This document shows, in pieces, positions 18,901 through 62,325 of a stretch of 64,000 nucleotides of DNA. A program made the position numbers and the translations under genes. The notes under the pieces were generated by a model, which worked only from the letters and a program-made list of their open reading frames with translations, made no database searches and was not told where the DNA came from. The stretch comes from Spirochaetia bacterium. Lineage in GTDB: Bacteria > Spirochaetota > Spirochaetia > WTKD01 > G963693115. The stretch is taken from contig CBDDCA010000002.1 of assembly GCA_965226055.1 (NCBI GenBank), positions 64,001-128,000 of the forward strand. The letters run 5' to 3'. Positions within the stretch are counted from its first letter, which is position 1. Each line of letters starts with the position of its first letter.

Positions 18901-19225
18901 TATTGCTACTCCCGGTACAGCAAAAGTATTTCTTGAAAATAATATACCATGTAAGGTAATATCTCGTGTATTTGAGGCAAAACGCAATGAATCAACTATT
19001 ATTGATGAATTACAAAAAGGAAATGTAGATCTCATCATAAACATCTTAAAAAGTGTTGATGCCCACTCTTTCTTAGATGATAAAGATATACGTAATGCTG
19101 CTTTACGTTATAGAATACCGTATATTTCAACTATCCCTGCATTAAATGCAGCCATTGAAGGTATAGAATTTCTTAAGAAAAACAAAGTGAGTGCAAGAAA
19201 ACTACATTATGATAGTAGTCTATAG
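15941..19225 (+). CDS. carB: Carbamoyl-phosphate synthase large subunit
   Basis: MPKREDLEKILIIGSGPIIIGQACEFDYSG, duplicated ATP-grasp halves, C-terminal MGS domain. Confidence 0.98.
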   Translation: MPKREDLEKILIIGSGPIIIGQACEFDYSGNQAVRALKEEGYTVILHNPNPATIMTTPGNAHIVYFDPLEPEYLIDILKKEKPDAILPTMGGQNALNLIMSFEEGQLENDYNVELIGAGLKSISLAEDRGLFKNLMTTIGLQSPVSALVKYEREALKVIDQVGFPVIIRPSFTLGGQGGSIAYHQKEFSEKLEKALRRSPVGTALVEESLLGYQEFEFEVMRDKEDNALVVCAIENIDPMGVHTGDSITVAPVQTLSDAEYQVLRSASIDILRAVGVECGGSNVQFAYNQATKRLLVIEMNPRVSRSSALASKVTGFPIAWSAAKLAVGYTLNEITNEITKNSTSFFEPALDYCAVKIPRFELQKFPIHELNTQMRSIGESLSFGTNFCEALNKAIRAIEIGYDGIEEELLSHEELQEKLQTLHPKRIFAIYTKLLREGEECIQSVSELTGYHPWVLYQLLRISNVEKKLKELSKDIQSGNVSQVCIDTIRTAKYMGFLNEKIATLLGVEVERIEEILHAYSIKKVYRCVDTCAAEFKASTPYYYGSYIGSTEHVPDSDKNIVILGSGPNRIGQGLEFDACCTLAAFAFQRRGFLVTIINSNPETVSTDYNVSNSLFFEPLSAEDVYDVLQEKNTRDMVVQLGGQTPITIIKKLQSKGIKPIGTSIDSIDIVESRKRFLDLLYEIQKDVDIDVIPGAIVHTITEVAGTADTIGFPILIRPSYVLGGQSMVVVYSQEELQRYISDNSTHLQENDLLVDKYLENAIEYDVDIVSDSESVYIAGILRHVEHAGVHSGDSACVFEPKVLQDEIAHKIYAASIAIVKKLSIKGLLNIQFASVGDKLYVLEANPRSSRTVPFISKTSGVDIIDMAVAIWTGEKLDEQPVFKERVMEGYENLAVGYSVEGYAIKESVFSFDRFDNIDPALGPEMRSTGEAIGLGDSFGEAFAKASMVASTHLPRTGTVCMSIAGKYKYSVLEQARQCIDLGFDIIATPGTAKVFLENNIPCKVISRVFEAKRNESTIIDELQKGNVDLIINILKSVDAHSFLDDKDIRNAALRYRIPYISTIPALNAAIEGIEFLKKNKVSARKLHYDSSL

Positions 19226-55070: not shown

Positions 55071-55861
55071 CAACACAAAGAAAGTTTTTTATACTACAAT
55101 AACTATTGTATATGATACTATTATGCAATAAAACAAACAGTAAGGAGTATTTGTATGAAAGATAGCTACAAAAGTAAAGGGCTACAGAGCCTGAAAATTG
55201 AGGGGGTACACTCTTGATATAAGAAAAACCTACCTATAGTATTTGCACTATTTTTAGTGCTAGCAATAGCTACCTTCGTACTCGTAGGATGTTCGGAGGG
55301 CAGTAGCAGTTCCTCAGGCAGAGAGGGAACACCAATAACACCGACACTCGCATCAGTGTCCAATGTGCAGATACAAGCAGCAGGCAATGACGTGACACTC
55401 TCGTTACGCTGGGAAGCTCCCAGTGATGCTACACATGTAGTTATAACGACAACATCTATAACGCCATCTATAGTATCAGCACAATCAATACAAGCGTGTA
55501 CTCCTTCAATAGAATACCTTACATTATTTCAACAAGACAGATCCTACACCCTCAGAGGCTTGCATTCTACCACTGATTATACAGTAGAGATAGAAGCCCA
55601 AAAATCAGACGCAGGCTCAGACACAGAAGTATCACCAAAAACAACACGCTCTGTGACAACACTGACCGATGAAACTGCACCGCAGGACACCTTTACACGG
55701 GTAGCAGTAGAGAAAGCATAAAACGATAGTATAAAGCTAACATGGGACAAAGCACTATTATCGTCAGGCAAGACAGACATAGCAGAAGCCACATACAAGT
55801 GATAAAGACAGAAGTATCGGTACAAGATGTAACACAAGGAGAAGTGAGCATTGCTGTCCCC

Positions 55862-57075
55862 TGGAGTTTTACCATTTCGTGTGAACCCTTTTGATAAAAT
55901 CAGTGTACCACAAAATTTCTATTATGCCAAGTGTGTAGAGTTCGTGTTGTAAGGAAAGTATCAACAATAAGAGGGCGCAGAGTAAGCACACAAGGATCCA
56001 GAGAAGGACTTTTTTCTTTGAGTAATATAGCAGGAGAGCCGTGTTTATAAGAGTTATGGCGTTGATGATTAAAGCTATATTGATACTCACTACTTAAGTG
56101 TAAAAAAGTACTGAGAGTAGGATTCTGCATTTTTGCATAGCATTCAGTTTCAATAAGTTTATGAGAAGCCTCGACATCAGAATTGTAAGGAGGAGAAGCA
56201 TATGGGATAGTAGTATGCTGTGCCTCATATGCCGCAAGAGAAGCAACAAAAGCAGACTGTTTTGTACTAAAAGCCCCTGAGATAAACTCAGAGCCATTAT
56301 CAGTTTGAATAGTAATAGAGGAAGTATCAACGTGAAAAGAAGCAAGATGAGTAAGCAGATATTCAATAAACAAAGCGGTGTGAGAAGAGCTTTTTTGAGT
56401 GGCAAAGCATATCCATAAAGCCCCTGTAGCAACATCGCGTGCGGTAATTTGATACTTTGGGAGGCAAAATTTGCGTAATGAGAAGTATAATTCGGGGATA
56501 TCAGTAAGATATTTAATGTCTACTTGTATTTTGTGACAAAATTGAAGTAGTGTTTTCCATAGGCGTGCTTCTTGGTTTCTTTGTGCTTTTTGCTTTTTAC
56601 TTGTCTTATAATACCCCATCTTTCTCAGATACTTAATAATAGTTTTTATGGAATAAGGAATATGATACTCTCGTTTTATATGAGAGGCAATACATCGTTG
56701 ATGATAATGCTGTAATGTTTCGCATATCTCTTTGAGTTTTAACTGATAGTAAAGTATCATAGTATCTGGATGCTCTACTGAAGCAGGACGTCTATCATAG
56801 AGCATAGCTTTAGGCTTCTCTTTGTATCTTTGCAACCACTTGCGTACGGTATTAGGAGATACATGAAAGATACGAGCAGTACTTTTGATACCGTGTTCTT
56901 TTGCAGAAAGTGCTATAGCTAAGCGTACTTTATGCAGTTCTTTTTGATTTCTTGTATTATAAAGTGTAGAGTATATCATGTACTCACCCCCTTTTTTTGT
57001 TTTTGTTTGTTATTTCCATGATAGTATAATTACTATCATGGATTTTGGGGGTTCACACAAGATGGTAAAAGTACA
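55862..57075 (-). mobile_element. IS481-like insertion sequence (1214 bp) with 14-bp target duplication
   Basis: 27-bp IRs TGGAGTTTTACCATTTCGTGTGAACCC and TGTACTTTTACCATCTTGTGTGAACCC; direct repeat GCATTGCTGTCCCC at 55848-55861 and 57076-57089. Confidence 0.9.
55900..56979 (-). CDS. DDE transposase (HTH + integrase core), IS481-like
   Basis: TARIFHVSPNTVRKWLQRY HTH; QVDIKY, QTDNGSEF, NSDVEASH, FNHQRHN; single ORF. Confidence 0.88.
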   Translation of the reverse strand: MIYSTLYNTRNQKELHKVRLAIALSAKEHGIKSTARIFHVSPNTVRKWLQRYKEKPKAMLYDRRPASVEHPDTMILYYQLKLKEICETLQHYHQRCIASHIKREYHIPYSIKTIIKYLRKMGYYKTSKKQKAQRNQEARLWKTLLQFCHKIQVDIKYLTDIPELYFSLRKFCLPKYQITARDVATGALWICFATQKSSSHTALFIEYLLTHLASFHVDTSSITIQTDNGSEFISGAFSTKQSAFVASLAAYEAQHTTIPYASPPYNSDVEASHKLIETECYAKMQNPTLSTFLHLSSEYQYSFNHQRHNSYKHGSPAILLKEKSPSLDPCVLTLRPLIVDTFLTTRTLHTWHNRNFVVH

Positions 57076-58633
57076 GCATTGCTGTCCCCACCATAGACGG
57101 CATAAGCTATGATATAGTAGTATTATACAAAGATAGCAACGGTAACAAAAGTACCGCAAAGCAAGCACTCAGAGGTATAGTACCCTCAGCACTCTCACAA
57201 ACAGTAGCAGCGCTCCCAGAGGCAGATCTTACAGTAACAGCAAACGATAAAAGCAATAGCCCAGCAGATGAAAGCTTGCTTATTAAGTGAGGAAATGTTA
57301 TCTTTACAGATAAAAGCCTCTAAGTACGAGTAACAGCAACAAATATTCTCATAGCATACGAAACAGTGAGCAATAGCAGTACTGCCAAACTCAGATCTGC
57401 AAGTGCAGACAACTAAGAGTACGCCACTGTATATGTAGCAAAGGACGGCATAGCCCTCACAAAACTCTATGGCACGCTTACCTACAAAGTAGAAGTACAT
57501 GTCTCTAAAAATGGAAAGTACTCCACTGCAGTGTCAAAAGAACAAGCAACAACAGACAAAAGCACAGAGCCTGTAAGCAATGTGAGTGCCATAGGAGGAT
57601 CAACAAGCATAGTAGTAGGCTGGCAAGCCCCCGATGTACGAGATTATGCAGGAGTAACTATAACAGCAACAGAAAAGGACAGCACCCGATGCAGTAACAA
57701 GCATACAAGCAAGCTATCCCTTTGTATCAAATACAAAAGTAGGCACACAGATAACATGGACAGCCCCGATACAATAAAAGCCAACAACAAAGACATAAAA
57801 GAATATAGCATAAGCATACAATAGAAAGGCACAAGTACTGCAGTACTGAGTGAGAATAAAATACCCTATTCCACAACAGCACTCTCTGTAGAAGAACTCA
57901 CGCAAAGCAAAACATATACAATAACAATACTCAGCTATGATTACTCAGAAAACAAAAGTAGCAAAGCTATACAAGACATAACCACACCTCACTCACTCAC
58001 AGCTCCCTCAGAAGATCTCTTTCAAAGCAAGCCTACACTTGACACAAGTACAGGAGCAATACAAATAAAAGCAACTTTTAAGAATGCTCCTGGCATAGGA
58101 AGATACTACATCCTGCGTATGAAAGATGGCACTACACTGGTAGCAGAAAAAAGCATAACAGGAATAGCAACCATCACTAGCTTTGGGATAGCAGACGGCT
58201 TAGAGGTACCCAAGAAACAAGCAAATGCCAATAATTATCGCTTTGATTTTTTGCAAATAGCAAATAATAGAGTAAGCCATGTAACCACTCTTGCTGATGC
58301 AGTAGCAGTATACGACAGTACCTCAAAGCCACTGCCAGCTCCCAAAGATGCAAAGCTCTCCATAGTGTCAGTAACCCAAACAACCGCAACAGCAGTCTAT
58401 ACATTTAGTGCAGGAGACAGTACTGATACTAACAAAGCACCCAGTGGAAGCAAACTCATGCAAGCACAAATACAATACAAAGTATACATAGCAGCAGGAG
58501 ACCATAGCACAAAGACACTAGACGAAATAAAAGTCCTTGCAGGAGTACAAACACGGGAGCTAGCAGGAAACAGTGCAGAATTAAAAGCAATATTTATAAG
58601 AAAGAAAGATGCAACATATACTGCAGGAATAGA

Positions 58634-59395
58634 AGAGTAAGCCATGTAGCGATGCATAACAAAGCCTATGCGGTGCATGACAGCTTTTGGGAGGAATACT
58701 ATCCTCCCAATGGCTGGGGATGTCAGTGTTATGTGGTGAGCATGGACGAAGAAGAGCTACAAGAGTATAGCATTGTAAAAGCTGATGCACTTGATACACA
58801 GCGATTAGCAAGTACTACTCCACAAGAATGGAAGCAAAACAGTGCTTTAGAGACACTTGTACCCCGCTTTGGAGAGATGAAGTATTTGCAAAGCCGTCCT
58901 GATGTGATGAAACAGATACAAAGTGCCTATGCAAAGGATATGAGAGGGAGTGCCTTGACCAGTGGTGAATTGGCATCCCTTGCAAAGAAGATAGCAAACT
59001 ATGGCAAAGGCAATCAAGTACCCAATGTACCAGTGCTATTGGGAGCAATGAGTGATGAAGTGTGGGATGCAGTAAAAACAAAACTGCCTGAAGTAGATGT
59101 ACGACTGCAGGGCACCACAGAAGATGTTGCGCATGCAATGCGAGAGAAGAAGGTGCATAAAGTGCCTGATGAGGCACTAAAGCATGTAAGTAGTGTGATG
59201 AGTGAGCCTGATGTGGTGTATGAAGAAGACAACGAGCTTATTTTTTGGAAAGAAGTAGAGAAAGAGAAGTATATACGAGTAGCGTTTGGCTATAAGAATA
59301 AGAAGTTATTGCGTATGAGGAGTTTTGATTATTTAGAAGGATCGTTAAAGAAAGATGATGTATTAAAAAATAAGGTGAAAGTGTATGAAAAATAA
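58634..59395 (+). CDS. Phage MuF (Mu gp30 / SPP1 gp7) minor head protein, 5'-truncated, with C-terminal BECR/PBECR-like nuclease extension
   Basis: RVSHVAMHN...DSFWEEYYPPNGWGCQC MuF core end; C-terminal AH..R...EPDVVYE..LIFWK..RSF pattern. Confidence 0.75.
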   Translation, partial: RVSHVAMHNKAYAVHDSFWEEYYPPNGWGCQCYVVSMDEEELQEYSIVKADALDTQRLASTTPQEWKQNSALETLVPRFGEMKYLQSRPDVMKQIQSAYAKDMRGSALTSGELASLAKKIANYGKGNQVPNVPVLLGAMSDEVWDAVKTKLPEVDVRLQGTTEDVAHAMREKKVHKVPDEALKHVSSVMSEPDVVYEEDNELIFWKEVEKEKYIRVAFGYKNKKLLRMRSFDYLEGSLKKDDVLKNKVKVYEK

Positions 59396-59397
59396 AA

Positions 59398-59471
59398 TGA
59401 TTGCATGGGGGGGCTCGAACCCACCTTTTGAGGACACGCCTCTAAGCCATCCTGTTGCCATCATGCAATCA
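59398..59471 (-). ncRNA. 74-nt tRNA-like RNA with a non-canonical anticodon arm
   Basis: 10-bp closing stem TGATTGCATG/CATGCAATCA, GG-containing D-like loop, GAGG-CGTGT-CCTC mini arm, T-arm GTGGG-TTCGAGC-CCCCC stacked on the acceptor stem. Confidence 0.65.
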
Positions 59472-59482
59472 CTCTATATAAG

Positions 59483-59511
59483 AGTATGAAAGAAACTGAC
59501 AATAAAGTCAA
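59483..59511 (-). promoter_or_regulatory. Sigma70-type promoter for the tRNA-like RNA
   Basis: TTGACT (59511-59506), 17-nt spacer, CATACT (59488-59483), 11 nt before the RNA's 5' stem. Confidence 0.65.
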
Positions 59512-59529
59512 GTAAAAAAGGAGAGTAAA

Positions 59530-59967
59530 ATGAAAAGAATGTTTTTAGTCTTTTTGATTTTATCGAGTGTGCTGTTTTCTGTATTTGCAGAAGACATTGA
59601 AAATGTAAAGTTTAAGAGAGTGTACGATGGGGATACTTTTTTCGTAGACATTGATGGTGTGCCTGATGTCTTTGGGGAGGGGGTAGGAGTGCGATTACGG
59701 GGAGTAGATACTCCCGAAATACGTGGCGATTGTCCTACTGAGAAAGCACTGGCGTATCAAGCAAAAGAATATGTGGCAGCGGTGCTTGAGAGTGCTGAGC
59801 GCATTGATTTACTAAACGTAACGAGAGGGAAATACTTTAGAATTGTGGCGTCTGTTGTGGTTGATGAGAAAATACATATAAGTGAAGAGCTCATCCGCAA
59901 GAGGCTTGGAGTAAGATACTACGGGGGAAAGAAAACAAAGAGCTGGTGTAATGGAGGGAGCGGGTAA
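59530..59967 (+). CDS. Secreted thermonuclease (SNase / micrococcal nuclease family)
   Basis: Signal peptide; RVYDGDTF, VRLRGVDTPE, GKYFRIVA. Confidence 0.9.
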   Translation: MKRMFLVFLILSSVLFSVFAEDIENVKFKRVYDGDTFFVDIDGVPDVFGEGVGVRLRGVDTPEIRGDCPTEKALAYQAKEYVAAVLESAERIDLLNVTRGKYFRIVASVVVDEKIHISEELIRKRLGVRYYGGKKTKSWCNGGSG

Positions 59968-60110
59968 TGTTTTGGATTGGGGTTTTTGTTGGCATAGGGA
60001 TCGTTGTAATAGCAGCGGTGGCATGTGTGATCGTAGCAAAAGGACTTACATACAAGTACAAGCACTCTAAAAATGGCTCTCGCATTCCATCAGGAAAGTA
60101 CAATGATTAG
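59967..60110 (+). CDS. 47-aa single-TM protein MFWIGVFVGIGIVVIAAVACVIVAKGLTYKYK...
   Basis: TAATG stop-start coupling to the nuclease gene, GGAG RBS, TM helix plus basic tail; absent from the ORF track. Confidence 0.55.
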   Translation: MFWIGVFVGIGIVVIAAVACVIVAKGLTYKYKHSKNGSRIPSGKYND

Positions 60111-60143
60111 CATTGTTCGAAAGAGGTTTCAAGGGAGGAAACA

Positions 60144-60362
60144 ATGAAAGTATTGTTGATTATTTTAGGATTGGTATGTATTCCTTTTGCGGTTTACTAT
60201 TTATGCAACCTAATAAAGTGGTGTGTAGGATTTTTGGTTACAGTGCTGGTAGTAATGGCATTGTTTCTTGCTTGGATATTCCAGCATTGCACCAAGAAAG
60301 TACTGTTATGGGTACTCTTTGGCATAACGATAGCGGTGTTGTTATTGCTCTTTGCATGGTAA
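60144..60362 (+). CDS. 72-aa very hydrophobic membrane protein
   Basis: GGAGG RBS; about three hydrophobic segments. Confidence 0.6.
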   Translation: MKVLLIILGLVCIPFAVYYLCNLIKWCVGFLVTVLVVMALFLAWIFQHCTKKVLLWVLFGITIAVLLLLFAW

Positions 60363-60380
60363 AGAGAAGGAGTTGTGAGT

Positions 60381-61319
60381 ATGAAGATATTGATATTTAG
60401 GCCTGGCAAATGGAACGGGATACAGTTTAGTAAAGAGTTTTGTATAGCACTTGCAAAGCGGTATAATGCACAAAAAGGGGCAGTAAAAGCACCGCTGGTA
60501 ATAGGGCATCAATGGCAGACGAAGATTGAAAATGAACTTGCAGAAGGCTGGGTAACGGAGCTAGAATATACTGATTCGGGTATTGTATATGCTCTGTGTA
60601 ATGAGGTGAGCGAGAACTTGAAGGGGTATATAGAAGACAAGCGATTACGCTATGCGTCTATAGAGTTTAAGTATAGTGTTGGGAAAGATGAAGCGATAGA
60701 AAATCCTGATTTATTGCGGGTAGCATTGTTAGGGCGTCATGCCCCTGCAGTGAAAGGAGCGAGAATAGTAAAGTTTTCAGAAGAGAAAGAAGACGATACG
60801 TATCGTACCAGTGTAAATTTTGATATGAGTGAGCAAGGGGGAGTAGTATCCTCTTTCGAAGAACATACAAATATTCCAGAAACAAAGGAGGAAGATATGA
60901 ATGAAGTGCAACAAATGCAAGAAACACTTGCAAAAAACGAGGTAGCGCTTGCAGAGAAAGACAAGCGAATAGCAGAGCTTGAAGCAAAGGAGAAGCTCCG
61001 CGAAAGTGAAGCGTTTGCTGATAGTTTGGTAAAAGAAGGCCGTCTTACGCCATCGCAAAAGGATGCAGTAGCAAGTTTACATGCAAGCCTCAGCGGTGAG
61101 CAGCAAAAGCAGTATGGGCAGACGCTCAAAGCAAGTCCTGTGCTTACGCAGTTGAGTAAACAAGAGACAGTATCAGATACTACAGGATCACTGTCGCTCT
61201 CTGACAAAGTAAAAGCATATCAAGCAAAGCATGGGATAGGAAGCTATGCTGATGCACTACAACGGCTTTCGTTAGAAGATGCTGAGTTTGCAAAACAGCT
61301 TAAAGCAGAGCAGGGCTAG
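60381..61319 (+). CDS. Mu-like prohead protease / scaffold
   Basis: IFRPGKW, APLVIGH, AEGWV, RYASIE, VALLGRHAPAVKG; coiled-coil C-terminus with GRLTPSQ. Confidence 0.85.
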   Translation: MKILIFRPGKWNGIQFSKEFCIALAKRYNAQKGAVKAPLVIGHQWQTKIENELAEGWVTELEYTDSGIVYALCNEVSENLKGYIEDKRLRYASIEFKYSVGKDEAIENPDLLRVALLGRHAPAVKGARIVKFSEEKEDDTYRTSVNFDMSEQGGVVSSFEEHTNIPETKEEDMNEVQQMQETLAKNEVALAEKDKRIAELEAKEKLRESEAFADSLVKEGRLTPSQKDAVASLHASLSGEQQKQYGQTLKASPVLTQLSKQETVSDTTGSLSLSDKVKAYQAKHGIGSYADALQRLSLEDAEFAKQLKAEQG

Positions 61320-61374
61320 AGTGCTATATTGCTATGCAATATATGAATACTACACAAAAGATAAGGAGTAATAT

Positions 61375-62325
61375 ATGACAGGAGAAATGTCACCAGAGAT
61401 TTTAGCAAACATCTCATCAGATTATACAAAGGAAGCAAGAAAAGGGCTGGTTTCCCCTATACTGTTTCCAAGAACAGAAGTACAAGAAGCGACAGGGAAA
61501 TTTCCACTCTTTGACAGGGCTGATTTGCTGTATGTACCCGATGCGAAACTTGCCAAGAAGAAAGATAAGGCAGTAGAGGTAGAACAAACACATTCATTTC
61601 AAGCGTTTGCGTGTGAGCAATATGCCTTAAAAGAATCTATTGCAAACAGCCAGATAGAAAAAGCAAAAGGTCCCTTTCCTCGCGTTATCGGAAGAACGGT
61701 AGAGCAACTGGTGGTAAAATTAGAGCTTGCGCAAGAGAATAGAGTGGCGACTACTGTAAAGGCACTCTCAGGTAATAACGCTACCACGCTTGCAGGCACT
61801 GGGAATGCAGAAGCAAACAAATGGGACAACGCAGGCTCTCCTGGAGGAAAACCTGTTTCGGTAATCATGGAAACCTTAGACAATATGACCATACGAGGCA
61901 ATACTCTTGTGATTCCTCGTTCGGTATGGCAAAAATTGCAATACCACACTGATGTTACGGGCAAGCTACCAGGGACCATGTACCAAACGCTCACGGTAGA
62001 AGCGTTAAAGGCGATATTTACTGTTGAGAATGTTGTGATTGCTAGTGGGCAAATCAAGACAACAAAGAATGGGAACATTGATGTGATTTGGGGCAACAAT
62101 GTTGTTTGTGCCTATGTTGATAACACAGGAGACCCTGATCAGCCTACGGCAGGACACACTCTCATCAATGAGTATGCAGAAGGCGGGGTAGATGGCTGGA
62201 TAGCACGCTCGTGGCAAGATGAAGCCATCGGTGTTACTGGGGGGACTTGGTTTCAAGTAGGACATGAAGTAGATGAGTTGTTAGTAGCAAAAGATTTAAT
62301 TCATGTTATCAAGGATGTAATATAG
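61375..62325 (+). CDS. Major capsid protein
   Basis: 316 aa directly after the protease; LANISSDY, ILFP..EV, QENRVA, NTLVI, IWGNNVV. Confidence 0.78.
   Translation: MTGEMSPEILANISSDYTKEARKGLVSPILFPRTEVQEATGKFPLFDRADLLYVPDAKLAKKKDKAVEVEQTHSFQAFACEQYALKESIANSQIEKAKGPFPRVIGRTVEQLVVKLELAQENRVATTVKALSGNNATTLAGTGNAEANKWDNAGSPGGKPVSVIMETLDNMTIRGNTLVIPRSVWQKLQYHTDVTGKLPGTMYQTLTVEALKAIFTVENVVIASGQIKTTKNGNIDVIWGNNVVCAYVDNTGDPDQPTAGHTLINEYAEGGVDGWIARSWQDEAIGVTGGTWFQVGHEVDELLVAKDLIHVIKDVI

Follow-up and report, generated by a model that had tools for sequence, protein, structure and literature searches.

Which gene is it that abuts the end of a muF gene on the opposite strand of a spirochaetal prophage remnant, and would its product act on the MuF protein (the Mu gp30-like minor head protein)? 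This question is raised by a 64,000-nt stretch of contig CBDDCA010000002.1 (Spirochaetia bacterium, GCA_965226055.1), hereafter called the window, whose positions serve as coordinates throughout unless another locus is named. In the window, a gap of 2 nt separates the MuF stop codon (TAA, 59393-59395) from a minus-strand element that has the shape of a tRNA. Comparison with relatives strongly supports the view that this element is a small RNA gene, derived from tRNA or converging on it. It looks like an undescribed phage-borne tRNA-like RNA held in conserved pairing with a virion protein domain of RNase fold. Some Mu-like phages from unrelated bacteria, the laboratory Pseudomonas phage B3 among them, have a similar RNA gene at this position.

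A tRNA-shaped RNA gene abutting muF

The four helices of the element (Table 1) follow each other as in a cloverleaf, the third hairpin being stacked on the closing stem P1. They are joined by short linkers, AT after the 5′ strand of P1, TA after the D-like arm and AAAAG before the T arm. This helix order, the junction lengths, a 5-bp T stem carrying the T-loop consensus (TTCGAGC), the GG in the D loop and the length of about 74 nt are shared with tRNA genes, including those of phages. On the other hand, the mini hairpin has 4 bp and, depending on the genome, a loop of 3-5 nt in place of the 5-bp stem and 7-nt loop of an anticodon arm, the closing stem has 10 bp instead of the 7 bp of an acceptor stem, and no CCA is encoded at the 3′ end, where TTTTATTTTT comes next. 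As suggested in an initial annotation of this DNA, a tRNA finder was run; ARAGORN reported 0 tRNAs in the window, and an Rfam scan of positions 58000-60500 at E ≤ 10 gave no tRNA match. That annotation had described a tRNA-mimic RNA of 74 nt, opposite to MuF and 2 nt past its stop. This description holds, each of the listed features having been found in the sequence, and the tRNA-shaped RNA gene is a non-decoding one.

Taken alone, the features of the single sequence barely beat chance. The fold z-score of the element is −2.06, with 5 of 200 shuffled sequences folding equally well, and promoter-like sites in the region are near the number expected by chance (7 in 3 kb, against 6.5 in shuffled sequence). 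It is because of the comparison with relatives that the element can be taken as real.

For this comparison, the segment 58652-59967 was used as the query of a DNA search across 61 genomes (G000 and 60 relatives). Only one other genome matched the element or MuF, namely G004, whose genus is a different one within the same family; the remaining matches were located within the part of the query that encodes a nuclease of the SNase family. The matches in G004 consist of 66 nt covering exactly the element, with 85% identity, and of 56 nt of a MuF motif. The DNA flanking the element is unalignable between the two genomes, and the identity of the two MuF proteins is 49%. The Mu-like prophage of G004 is intact and has the order terminase, portal, full MuF (417 aa), element, head protease and major head protein. 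In this prophage, the head protease gene lies 123 nt past MuF, no open reading frame (ORF) of at least 60 aa is found in between, and the gap contains the RNA and a promoter-like site. The element overlaps the MuF stop codon by 1 nt, at the same place and on the same strand as in the window. An exact pattern taken from the conserved D-loop region had no match in metagenome or viral contigs, and a scan of metagenomes with the MuF protein found no relative exceeding 28% across most of the query. Within the searches made, G004 holds the only close orthologue of the window element.

The first 33 nt of the RNA, through GAGG, are the same in the two genomes save for one inserted base. Compensatory changes are observed in the helices. 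The three outer pairs of P1 are switched on both sides, from UGA/UCA in the window to GCG/CGC in G004. The third pair of the T stem is G-C in the window and A-U in G004, and the U.C mismatch of the window is replaced by an A-U pair. The P1 stem of G004 contains two internal U.U mismatches, and its mini hairpin, GAGG-GTT-CCTC, keeps the stem with a loop of 3 nt. On the minus strand, 9 nt upstream of the G004 element, a promoter-like site (TTGACT-17-TATTCT) is the sole such site in 500 bp. It has the same −35 hexamer and the same spacing as the site of the window, whose −10 box ends 11 nt upstream of P1. The TTGACT-17-CATACT promoter that had been annotated as pointing into the element is present and is supported by the comparison with G004 and with more distant relatives.

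Phage integration at a host tRNA gene could also leave a tRNA-like scar, and the initial annotation had considered that the element might match the 3′ end of a host tRNA, as an att remnant. The 2.25-Mb genome has one copy of the element. When it is compared to the 37 host tRNAs and the transfer-messenger RNA (tmRNA), the ungapped matches amount to 13-18 nt of the T arm only. The best of these involves tRNA-Leu(caa), at 16 of 18 positions, and the T arms of tRNA-Leu, -Lys and -Ser are close. One gapped match of 26 columns concerns the D/anticodon-arm region of tRNA-Ser(tga). Hence, what speaks for a scar is a generic T-arm similarity, against which stand the single copy, the confinement of the matches to the T arm and one gapped stretch, and the location of the element within the head module of the intact G004 prophage as well as in phage B3. 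The likelihood of an att remnant is accordingly negligible.

Table 1. Position and strand of the features discussed, in window coordinates
Feature	Position	Strand	Basis
tRNA-shaped cloverleaf RNA gene, 74 nt	59398-59471	minus	sequence reading; G004 orthologue with compensatory changes
Closing stem P1, 10 bp, TGATTGCATG/CATGCAATCA	59471-59462 with 59407-59398	minus	
D-like arm GGC-AACAGGATG-GCT, loop with GG	59459-59445	minus	
Mini hairpin GAGG-CGTGT-CCTC (4 bp, 5-nt loop)	59442-59430	minus	
T arm GTGGG-TTCGAGC-CCCCC, one U.C mismatch	59424-59408	minus	
U-rich tract TTTTATTTTT... directly after P1, overlapping the MuF stop and last codons	59384-59397	minus	
Sigma-70-type promoter-like site TTGACT-17-CATACT, pointing into the element	59511-59483	minus	promoter scan
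MuF (Mu gp30-like minor head protein) pseudogene remnant, residues 1-126 missing, one in-frame TAA	58553-59395	plus	
MuF-C/PBECR-like (RelE/BECR-fold) C-terminal domain, 115 aa	59048-59392	plus	weak Pfam match, AF2 model, alignment
SNase-family nuclease gene, hydrophobic N-terminus	59530-59967	plus	Pfam E 8e-8; PHROG endonuclease
Two small hydrophobic ORFs (47 and 72 aa), same insert as the SNase gene	59967-60362	plus	no Pfam family
Mu-like head maturation protease/scaffold	60375-61319	plus	
Major head protein	61375-62325	plus	

A proposed family of cloverleaf RNAs and its predicted transcription

Does the pair formed by the window and G004 belong to a wider family? Among 240 MuF loci gathered from genomes, viral contigs and metagenomes, many show a structured element directly after the MuF stop. 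Read on the minus strand, a stem of 6-14 bp closes off two internal hairpins and a third that stacks upon this stem. That third hairpin takes the form of a textbook T arm (GGTTCGAnTCC) in several lineages; in many proteobacterial members its loop has 9 nt and is not a T loop. Since a T loop and a GG D loop occur together in many members, a tRNA-like elbow is expected. The loci were scored with a crude detector, which combines a closing stem and an adjacent hairpin on the minus strand, a score of at least 32 being counted as positive. Long-type MuF stops were positive in 30 of 122 cases and control sites of these loci in 35 of 727 (Mann-Whitney p 1e-10). The metagenome loci gave 15 positives out of 49 (three pairs being duplicates), and the short MuF genes, which do not have the C-terminal domain, gave 0 out of 18. 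Surely, some elements are missed by this detector.

Conserved structure and covariation beside MuF homologues, which the initial annotation had proposed to look for, were both found. In an alignment of eight termite-gut spirochaete elements (A10), on which the four-helix structure was imposed, 89.8% of 177 cells are paired and 15 of 24 pairs are changed on both sides. None of 500 column shuffles reaches any of the four measures used, and slid partners are paired to 36-55%. In the case of the phage B3 type (B3 and three environmental sequences), RNAalifold was given no structure and returned a four-helix cloverleaf with 29 pairs, 6 of which show double changes. The closing stem is 100% paired in seven gammaproteobacterial and betaproteobacterial sequences, a value obtained partly by construction because the elements were picked for having a closing stem.

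A covariance-type search was also made with a model, R2, built from A10 without the window sequence. It gave strong matches to further members (L183, 86.7 bits; L017, 52.5 bits). On 151 whole genomes of the class it gave one match, in G011, where 11 nt separate it from the stop codon of a MuF gene (413 aa) encoded on the other strand. As this genome search was not anchored on MuF, it provides an independent check, though a single case. Another model, R1, derived from four near-identical gammaproteobacterial elements, proved too narrow; it retrieved its seeds plus L029 and L074, and found only itself in 151 genomes of its order. A single family-wide model was not obtained because MAFFT misplaces the closing stem when run across subfamilies. 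Rfam 15 gave no match at the element in the window, at 14 MuF loci or at the loci of phages B3, TJ1 and KS10; this phage RNA family is lacking from Rfam. Further away, about 760 nt past the MuF stop of a viral contig (L103 1934-2036), Rfam sRNA-Xcc1 is matched with 61.9 bits, above its gathering score, and is unrelated to the element.

The resemblance to tRNA varies along the family. ARAGORN called a tRNA in 2 of 40 element-bearing loci, Gly-gcc (L024) and Leu-gag (L180), both with mismatched acceptor stems. At a looser setting, its calls disagree between near-identical copies, and no consistent anticodon identity emerges among relatives. One lineage retains a 7-nt anticodon-like loop, and a close relative is one base short of it. 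These traits fit an origin in a phage tRNA gene that can now dispense with its decoding arm. It may then be asked whether the element is simply such a gene in decay, devoid of present function. The two ARAGORN calls and the closeness of the window T arm to those of host tRNA-Leu, -Lys and -Ser would agree with this. Nevertheless, the element is conserved across phyla with compensatory changes and keeps its promoter, its first 33 nt are nearly identical between two genera whose flanking DNA has diverged beyond alignment, and the decoding loop is absent throughout different lineages. Decay of a tRNA gene is thus a very unlikely explanation.

In phage B3 (NC_006548), the cloverleaf is found at L262 2740-2825 on the minus strand, under an annotated 32-aa 'ORF34' (L262 2740-2869, about 18971-19100 of the record) that is placed between MuF (ORF33) and gene G (ORF35). 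'ORF34' is probably a mis-annotated RNA gene of the other strand. More generally, some of the small 'hypothetical proteins' annotated between head genes probably correspond to RNA genes on the other strand. In BcepMu and phiE255, where a short MuF gene is overlapped by gene G, and in KS10, no clear cloverleaf was seen. BcepMu and phiE255 (L176, L177 3381-3596) show GGTTCGAACC in the 200-nt spacer between gene G and the protease gene, which in phiE255 also contains an annotated 44-aa minus-strand ORF (gp7). In a Helicobacter pullorum prophage (L179 3160-3630), a minus-strand hairpin, GTGGG-GTGGCAA-CCCAC, abuts the MuF stop and is followed by a 460-nt gene-free region. This arrangement may represent a larger or different version of the element.

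On which strand would these RNAs be made? A symmetric count of G-U versus A-C pairs on the detector output was too noisy (126 versus 108) and was therefore replaced by the curated alignment and an energy test. With the minus-strand reading, the helices of A10 contain 15 G-U and 3 A-C pairs, and the B3 type has three invariant G-U pairs together with others in the closing stem. With boundaries defined from Watson-Crick pairs only, 37 of 47 elements have their better fold on the minus strand (Wilcoxon p 5e-4). Among control segments inside the MuF ORF (n = 188), 86 favour the minus and 102 the plus strand, which shows no such bias. Upstream of the elements, 19 promoter-like sites are in minus orientation and 0 in the opposite one. 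In 13 of 46 loci, the closing stem begins 2-14 nt past the end of the −10 box, further cases having been seen by eye, and phage B3 has the promoter-like site CTGCCA-17-TATAGT in matching position. In Curvibacter phage TJ1, a canonical minus-strand intrinsic terminator is located between the element and the MuF stop (L264 2748-2860), and the same is seen in L041. In phages of the TJ1 and L041 type, the 3′ end of the RNA would probably be set by termination. Together, the G-U bias, the fold bias, the promoters and the terminator point to a separate minus-strand transcription unit. A listing of the sequencing runs that contain the window stretch gave four of DNA type, from one study, and none of RNA, which speaks neither for nor against expression. 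In the window, the U-rich tract that follows P1 may be a 3′-end signal. It was not called by the terminator scan, and such a tract is not general in the family, the mean number of T being 4.3 over the first 10 nt and 2.8 farther downstream. The window element was also considered as a plus-strand terminator of MuF, and rejected, as the scan made no such call.

These transcription signals bear on the idea that the locus is a regulator in cis. Through transcriptional interference or termination, the convergent promoter and a structured, stable antisense transcript would keep the portal-MuF and protease-capsid transcription units insulated from each other, the shape of the RNA mattering for its stability only. 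The genome of phage Mu has a late promoter before gene I. In many of the loci studied here the −35 box adjoins or overlaps the ribosome-binding region of the next gene, and phage TJ1 has its terminator at the element. However, four covarying helices, conserved loops and a T loop exceed what stability would require, the RNA barely overlaps coding sequence and has little to pair with, and the scan called no plus-strand terminator at the window element. A cis-acting antisense device is therefore quite unlikely.

The predicted RNase-fold domain of MuF and possible roles of the RNA

The MuF gene of the window is a remnant. Its residual ORF (58652-59395) encodes 247 aa, and the homology to the G004 protein begins at 58553 and spans residues 127-416 of the latter only, in agreement with the earlier view that the rest of MuF had been deleted. 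The ORF matches the PHROG family 'minor head protein and DNA pilot' (phrog_220, E 3.3e-16), the MuF proteins of SfMu and of two Yersinia Mu-like phages over 85% of its length and that of Escherichia virus Mu_3F6 over 80%. A search with the G004 portal protein gave no match in the window's own genome, which is 89% complete. The phage of the window is a remnant with a truncated MuF, in which the RNA gene and its promoter are intact.

What is the nature of the domain encoded opposite to the RNA? When Pfam families, including PF18812 and PF18819, were tested on 26 aligned homologues at E ≤ 0.01, MuF_C was found in 5 of them, PBECR3 in 3 and PBECR2 in 3. The AF2 model of the C-terminal domain (pLDDT 80.8) contains two helices and a four-stranded sheet, and its best structural matches are BrnT, RelE, YoeB, HigB and YafQ (Foldseek E at least 0.03; VIA Z 6.7-4), with a HigB1-ribosome entry among the matches. 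Overall, the data are consistent with a RelE/BECR-like fold, though not strongly so. A histidine (ORF residue 161) is nearly invariant in the 26 sequences, and the last strand carries an Arg/Thr-Ser/Thr motif, Arg-Ser (223-224) in the window. As far as the accessible text of Iyer 2017 (PMC5512222) goes, this His and Ser/Thr pattern agrees with the PBECR active site described there. The same text reports that Mu gp30 ends in an inactive PBECR domain, MuF-C, and predicts RNA binding or RNase activity for MuF-C, RNA binding being the prediction for the inactive form. The initial annotation had seen in this part of MuF a BECR-fold nuclease swapped in as a polymorphic toxin and had expected a PBECR match. 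The probable fold and the conserved His and Ser/Thr residues remain, and a PBECR3 match was indeed obtained, with a Pfam score below the cut-off. The swapped-in toxin does not remain. What was called a 'fused nuclease' is the standard MuF-C/PBECR domain, which proteins of the Mu gp30 type have as well, and thus forms the usual C-terminus of this protein family.

The favoured explanation, possible though short of an even chance, is that the RNA is the cognate partner of MuF-C, acting as a tRNA-shaped decoy or inhibitor. In such a model, the RNA would be made from the prophage thanks to its own promoter, independently of late transcription. It would bind the RelE-like MuF-C domain as a decoy that is not consumed, and the bound RNA would prevent the RNase, virion-borne or incoming, from reaching its true RNA targets. 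An immunity-like role would then be held by an RNA in place of a protein. In favour of a partner or decoy, the RNA stays at the MuF stop while the downstream gene changes, the next gene being the protease in G004, the SNase gene in the window, a C39-like gene in G011 and gene G in B3. According to the accessible part of Jamet 2017 (PMC5576092), immunity genes lie directly downstream of MuF toxin genes, the spot held here by the RNA gene. Moreover, the candidate catalytic His is found in 24 of 29 RNA-positive loci against 25 of 65 RNA-negative ones, and the Ser/Thr of the motif in 20 of 29 against 18 of 65. This correlation is a lead rather than a test, because the loci are related and the detector is imperfect. 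Finally, in the window, a single case, MuF is dead and the RNA gene has persisted, which agrees better with a role that is immunity-like or independent of MuF than with that of a cofactor.

Several observations weigh against the decoy model. Some concern the family itself. Only about one quarter of the long-type MuF loci score, about 5% of the controls score too, and phage Mu does not have the element. Further single-sequence fold z-scores are weak as well (−1.0, 0.0, −0.95, −0.88). With default filters, R2 misses the window element; with the filters off, the element is the best of 5 kb (59399-59470, minus), at a weak 13.2 bits (E 0.08) that comes from the closing stem and the T arm alone. The window/G004 pair would therefore be a divergent variant of the family, assigned on architecture, position, strand and promoter rather than on a strong model score. 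Other points concern the protein. The PBECR3 match has 19.8 bits for a curated cut-off of 30 (E 7.6e-4), MuF_C is also below its cut-off, and a structural Z of 6.7 can still be due to a common arrangement. The last points concern the link between the two. This link is drawn from position and a correlation; since the head modules compared are homologous, their shared position may be inherited synteny; the His correlation is uncorrected for relatedness, and the detector misses elements; and a phage-delivered RNase has no obvious need of an inhibitor in the producing cell.

The same evidence of linkage (position, detector counts, His correlation and changing neighbours) can be read in another manner. 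The RNA would work together with MuF-C, either by being packaged along with MuF in the head or by directing the domain towards its target. The ribosomal A site is where RelE-type folds act. In one version of such a ribonucleoprotein particle, RNA and protein would form a composite tRNA mimic, the protein standing where the anticodon arm is missing, in the manner of SmpB with tmRNA. It fits with this idea that the arm which is shrunken and variable is the anticodon arm, that the structural matches of the domain include the HigB1-ribosome entry, and that RNA binding is predicted for inactive MuF-C in the available text of Iyer 2017 (PMC5512222). Conversely, the RNA has neither CCA nor discriminator, its closing stem has 7-14 bp where tRNA has 7, and the persistence of the RNA gene beside the MuF pseudogene of the window is a poorer fit to a partner role. 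A working particle is on balance unlikely. That RNA and MuF-C would form one composite tRNA-mimic particle, carried in the virion or made early, which would enter the ribosomal A site and cut or block host translation, is most improbable. If true, phages would have a ribonucleoprotein effector of a new class, and a BECR-fold RNase would have its first known RNA partner.

A further possibility is that the RNA has nothing to do with MuF. It would be a tRNA-shaped moron expressed from the prophage, acting on host machinery that recognises the tRNA elbow, for instance as a decoy for tRNA-targeting defence nucleases or as a sponge for tRNA-processing or tRNA-modifying enzymes, and its place behind MuF would be due to inherited synteny only. 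A sigma-70-type promoter of its own that faces away from the late genes, the conservation of the T loop and of the GG D loop in several subfamilies, the accumulation of inserts between the RNA and the protease gene, and the survival of the RNA in a degraded prophage are all compatible with such an accessory function. However, the tight abutment to the MuF stop is kept despite changing downstream neighbours, none of the 18 short MuF loci scores, the RNA correlates with the catalytic His, and the third hairpin of many members is not a T loop. We regard this explanation, too, as rather unlikely.

How does the element compare to known systems? The initial annotation had proposed a pair resembling type III toxin-antitoxin modules. 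As in ToxIN, CptIN, TenpIN and AvcID, a small structured RNA, here the proposed neutraliser, stands beside a predicted endoribonuclease. The canonical layout is not that of the present locus: no tandem repeats occur in 58600-60400, the RNA is downstream, on the opposite strand and with its own promoter, and the RelE/BECR-like 'toxin' is a domain of a virion protein. The MuF polymorphic toxin-immunity modules of Jamet 2017 (PMC5576092), as presented in the accessible text, share with the element the position directly downstream of an effector-bearing muF, and differ from it in that an opposite-strand RNA gene replaces the small ORF and that MuF-C is conserved rather than being a swapped cassette. 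No small immunity ORF was found directly downstream of muF, the G004 gap being devoid of ORFs of at least 60 aa and the next ORF in the window being the SNase gene. Compared to the MuF-C/PBECR proteins of Iyer 2017 (PMC5512222), the neighbouring domain fits by its weak Pfam match, its fold and its His and Ser/Thr motif; the text of that article, supplements aside, names no RNA partner. The likeness to tmRNA/SmpB would be a functional one, a tRNA-like RNA without anticodon arm beside a domain of the kind that binds the decoding site, although the element has no mRNA-like part and the protein is RelE-like, not SmpB-like. Phi29 pRNA and the Mu-gpT-DE motif are non-coding RNAs tied to phage head genes. 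The element differs from both by its location behind MuF, its antisense orientation, its shape and the lack of an Rfam match. In the literature covered, which left out most subscription journals and the supplements of papers, no description of such an RNA was found.

MuF is widespread and little understood, and its C-terminal RNase-fold domain, known by computational prediction, has no known RNA partner. A conserved tRNA-shaped RNA gene at muF is a concrete candidate ligand for MuF-C. If the inhibitor model were true, an RNA would do the job of a protein in polymorphic-toxin immunity. The presence of the element in phage B3 makes the question open to bench work with a standard phage-host pair.

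Neighbouring genes and inserts

Downstream of the window element, the head genes look intact. The protease/scaffold and major head protein genes (60375-62325) are arranged as in G004 and hence form a Mu-type head module. They are separated from the RNA promoter by the SNase gene and the two hydrophobic ORFs. These genes are missing at the G004 site and make up an insert (moron). The initial annotation had noticed that the next gene encodes a nuclease and no obvious immunity protein. The SNase domain is confirmed. The gene belongs to the insert, and in G004 it is the protease gene that directly follows the element.

On the left side, an insertion-sequence transposase with helix-turn-helix and rve integrase core domains (55900-56979, minus) lies about 1.6 kb upstream of the truncated MuF and may be a trace of the event in which the prophage lost its left part. 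Ser/Thr-rich ORFs are found at 55257-55721, 57531-57824 and 58119-58640. The last of these reaches the MuF remnant, where it overlaps the first homologous codons in another frame; it was scanned and matched no Pfam or PHROG family.

In other genomes, too, the stretch between the RNA promoter and the head protease gene gathers unrelated inserts. In G011, the insert (L260 848-1450) is a gene for a 200-aa C39-like peptidase (Pfam E 7.9e-4, below the cut-off), and some termite-gut spirochaete loci seem to hold a C39-like gene as well, as judged from similarity of the N-terminus only.

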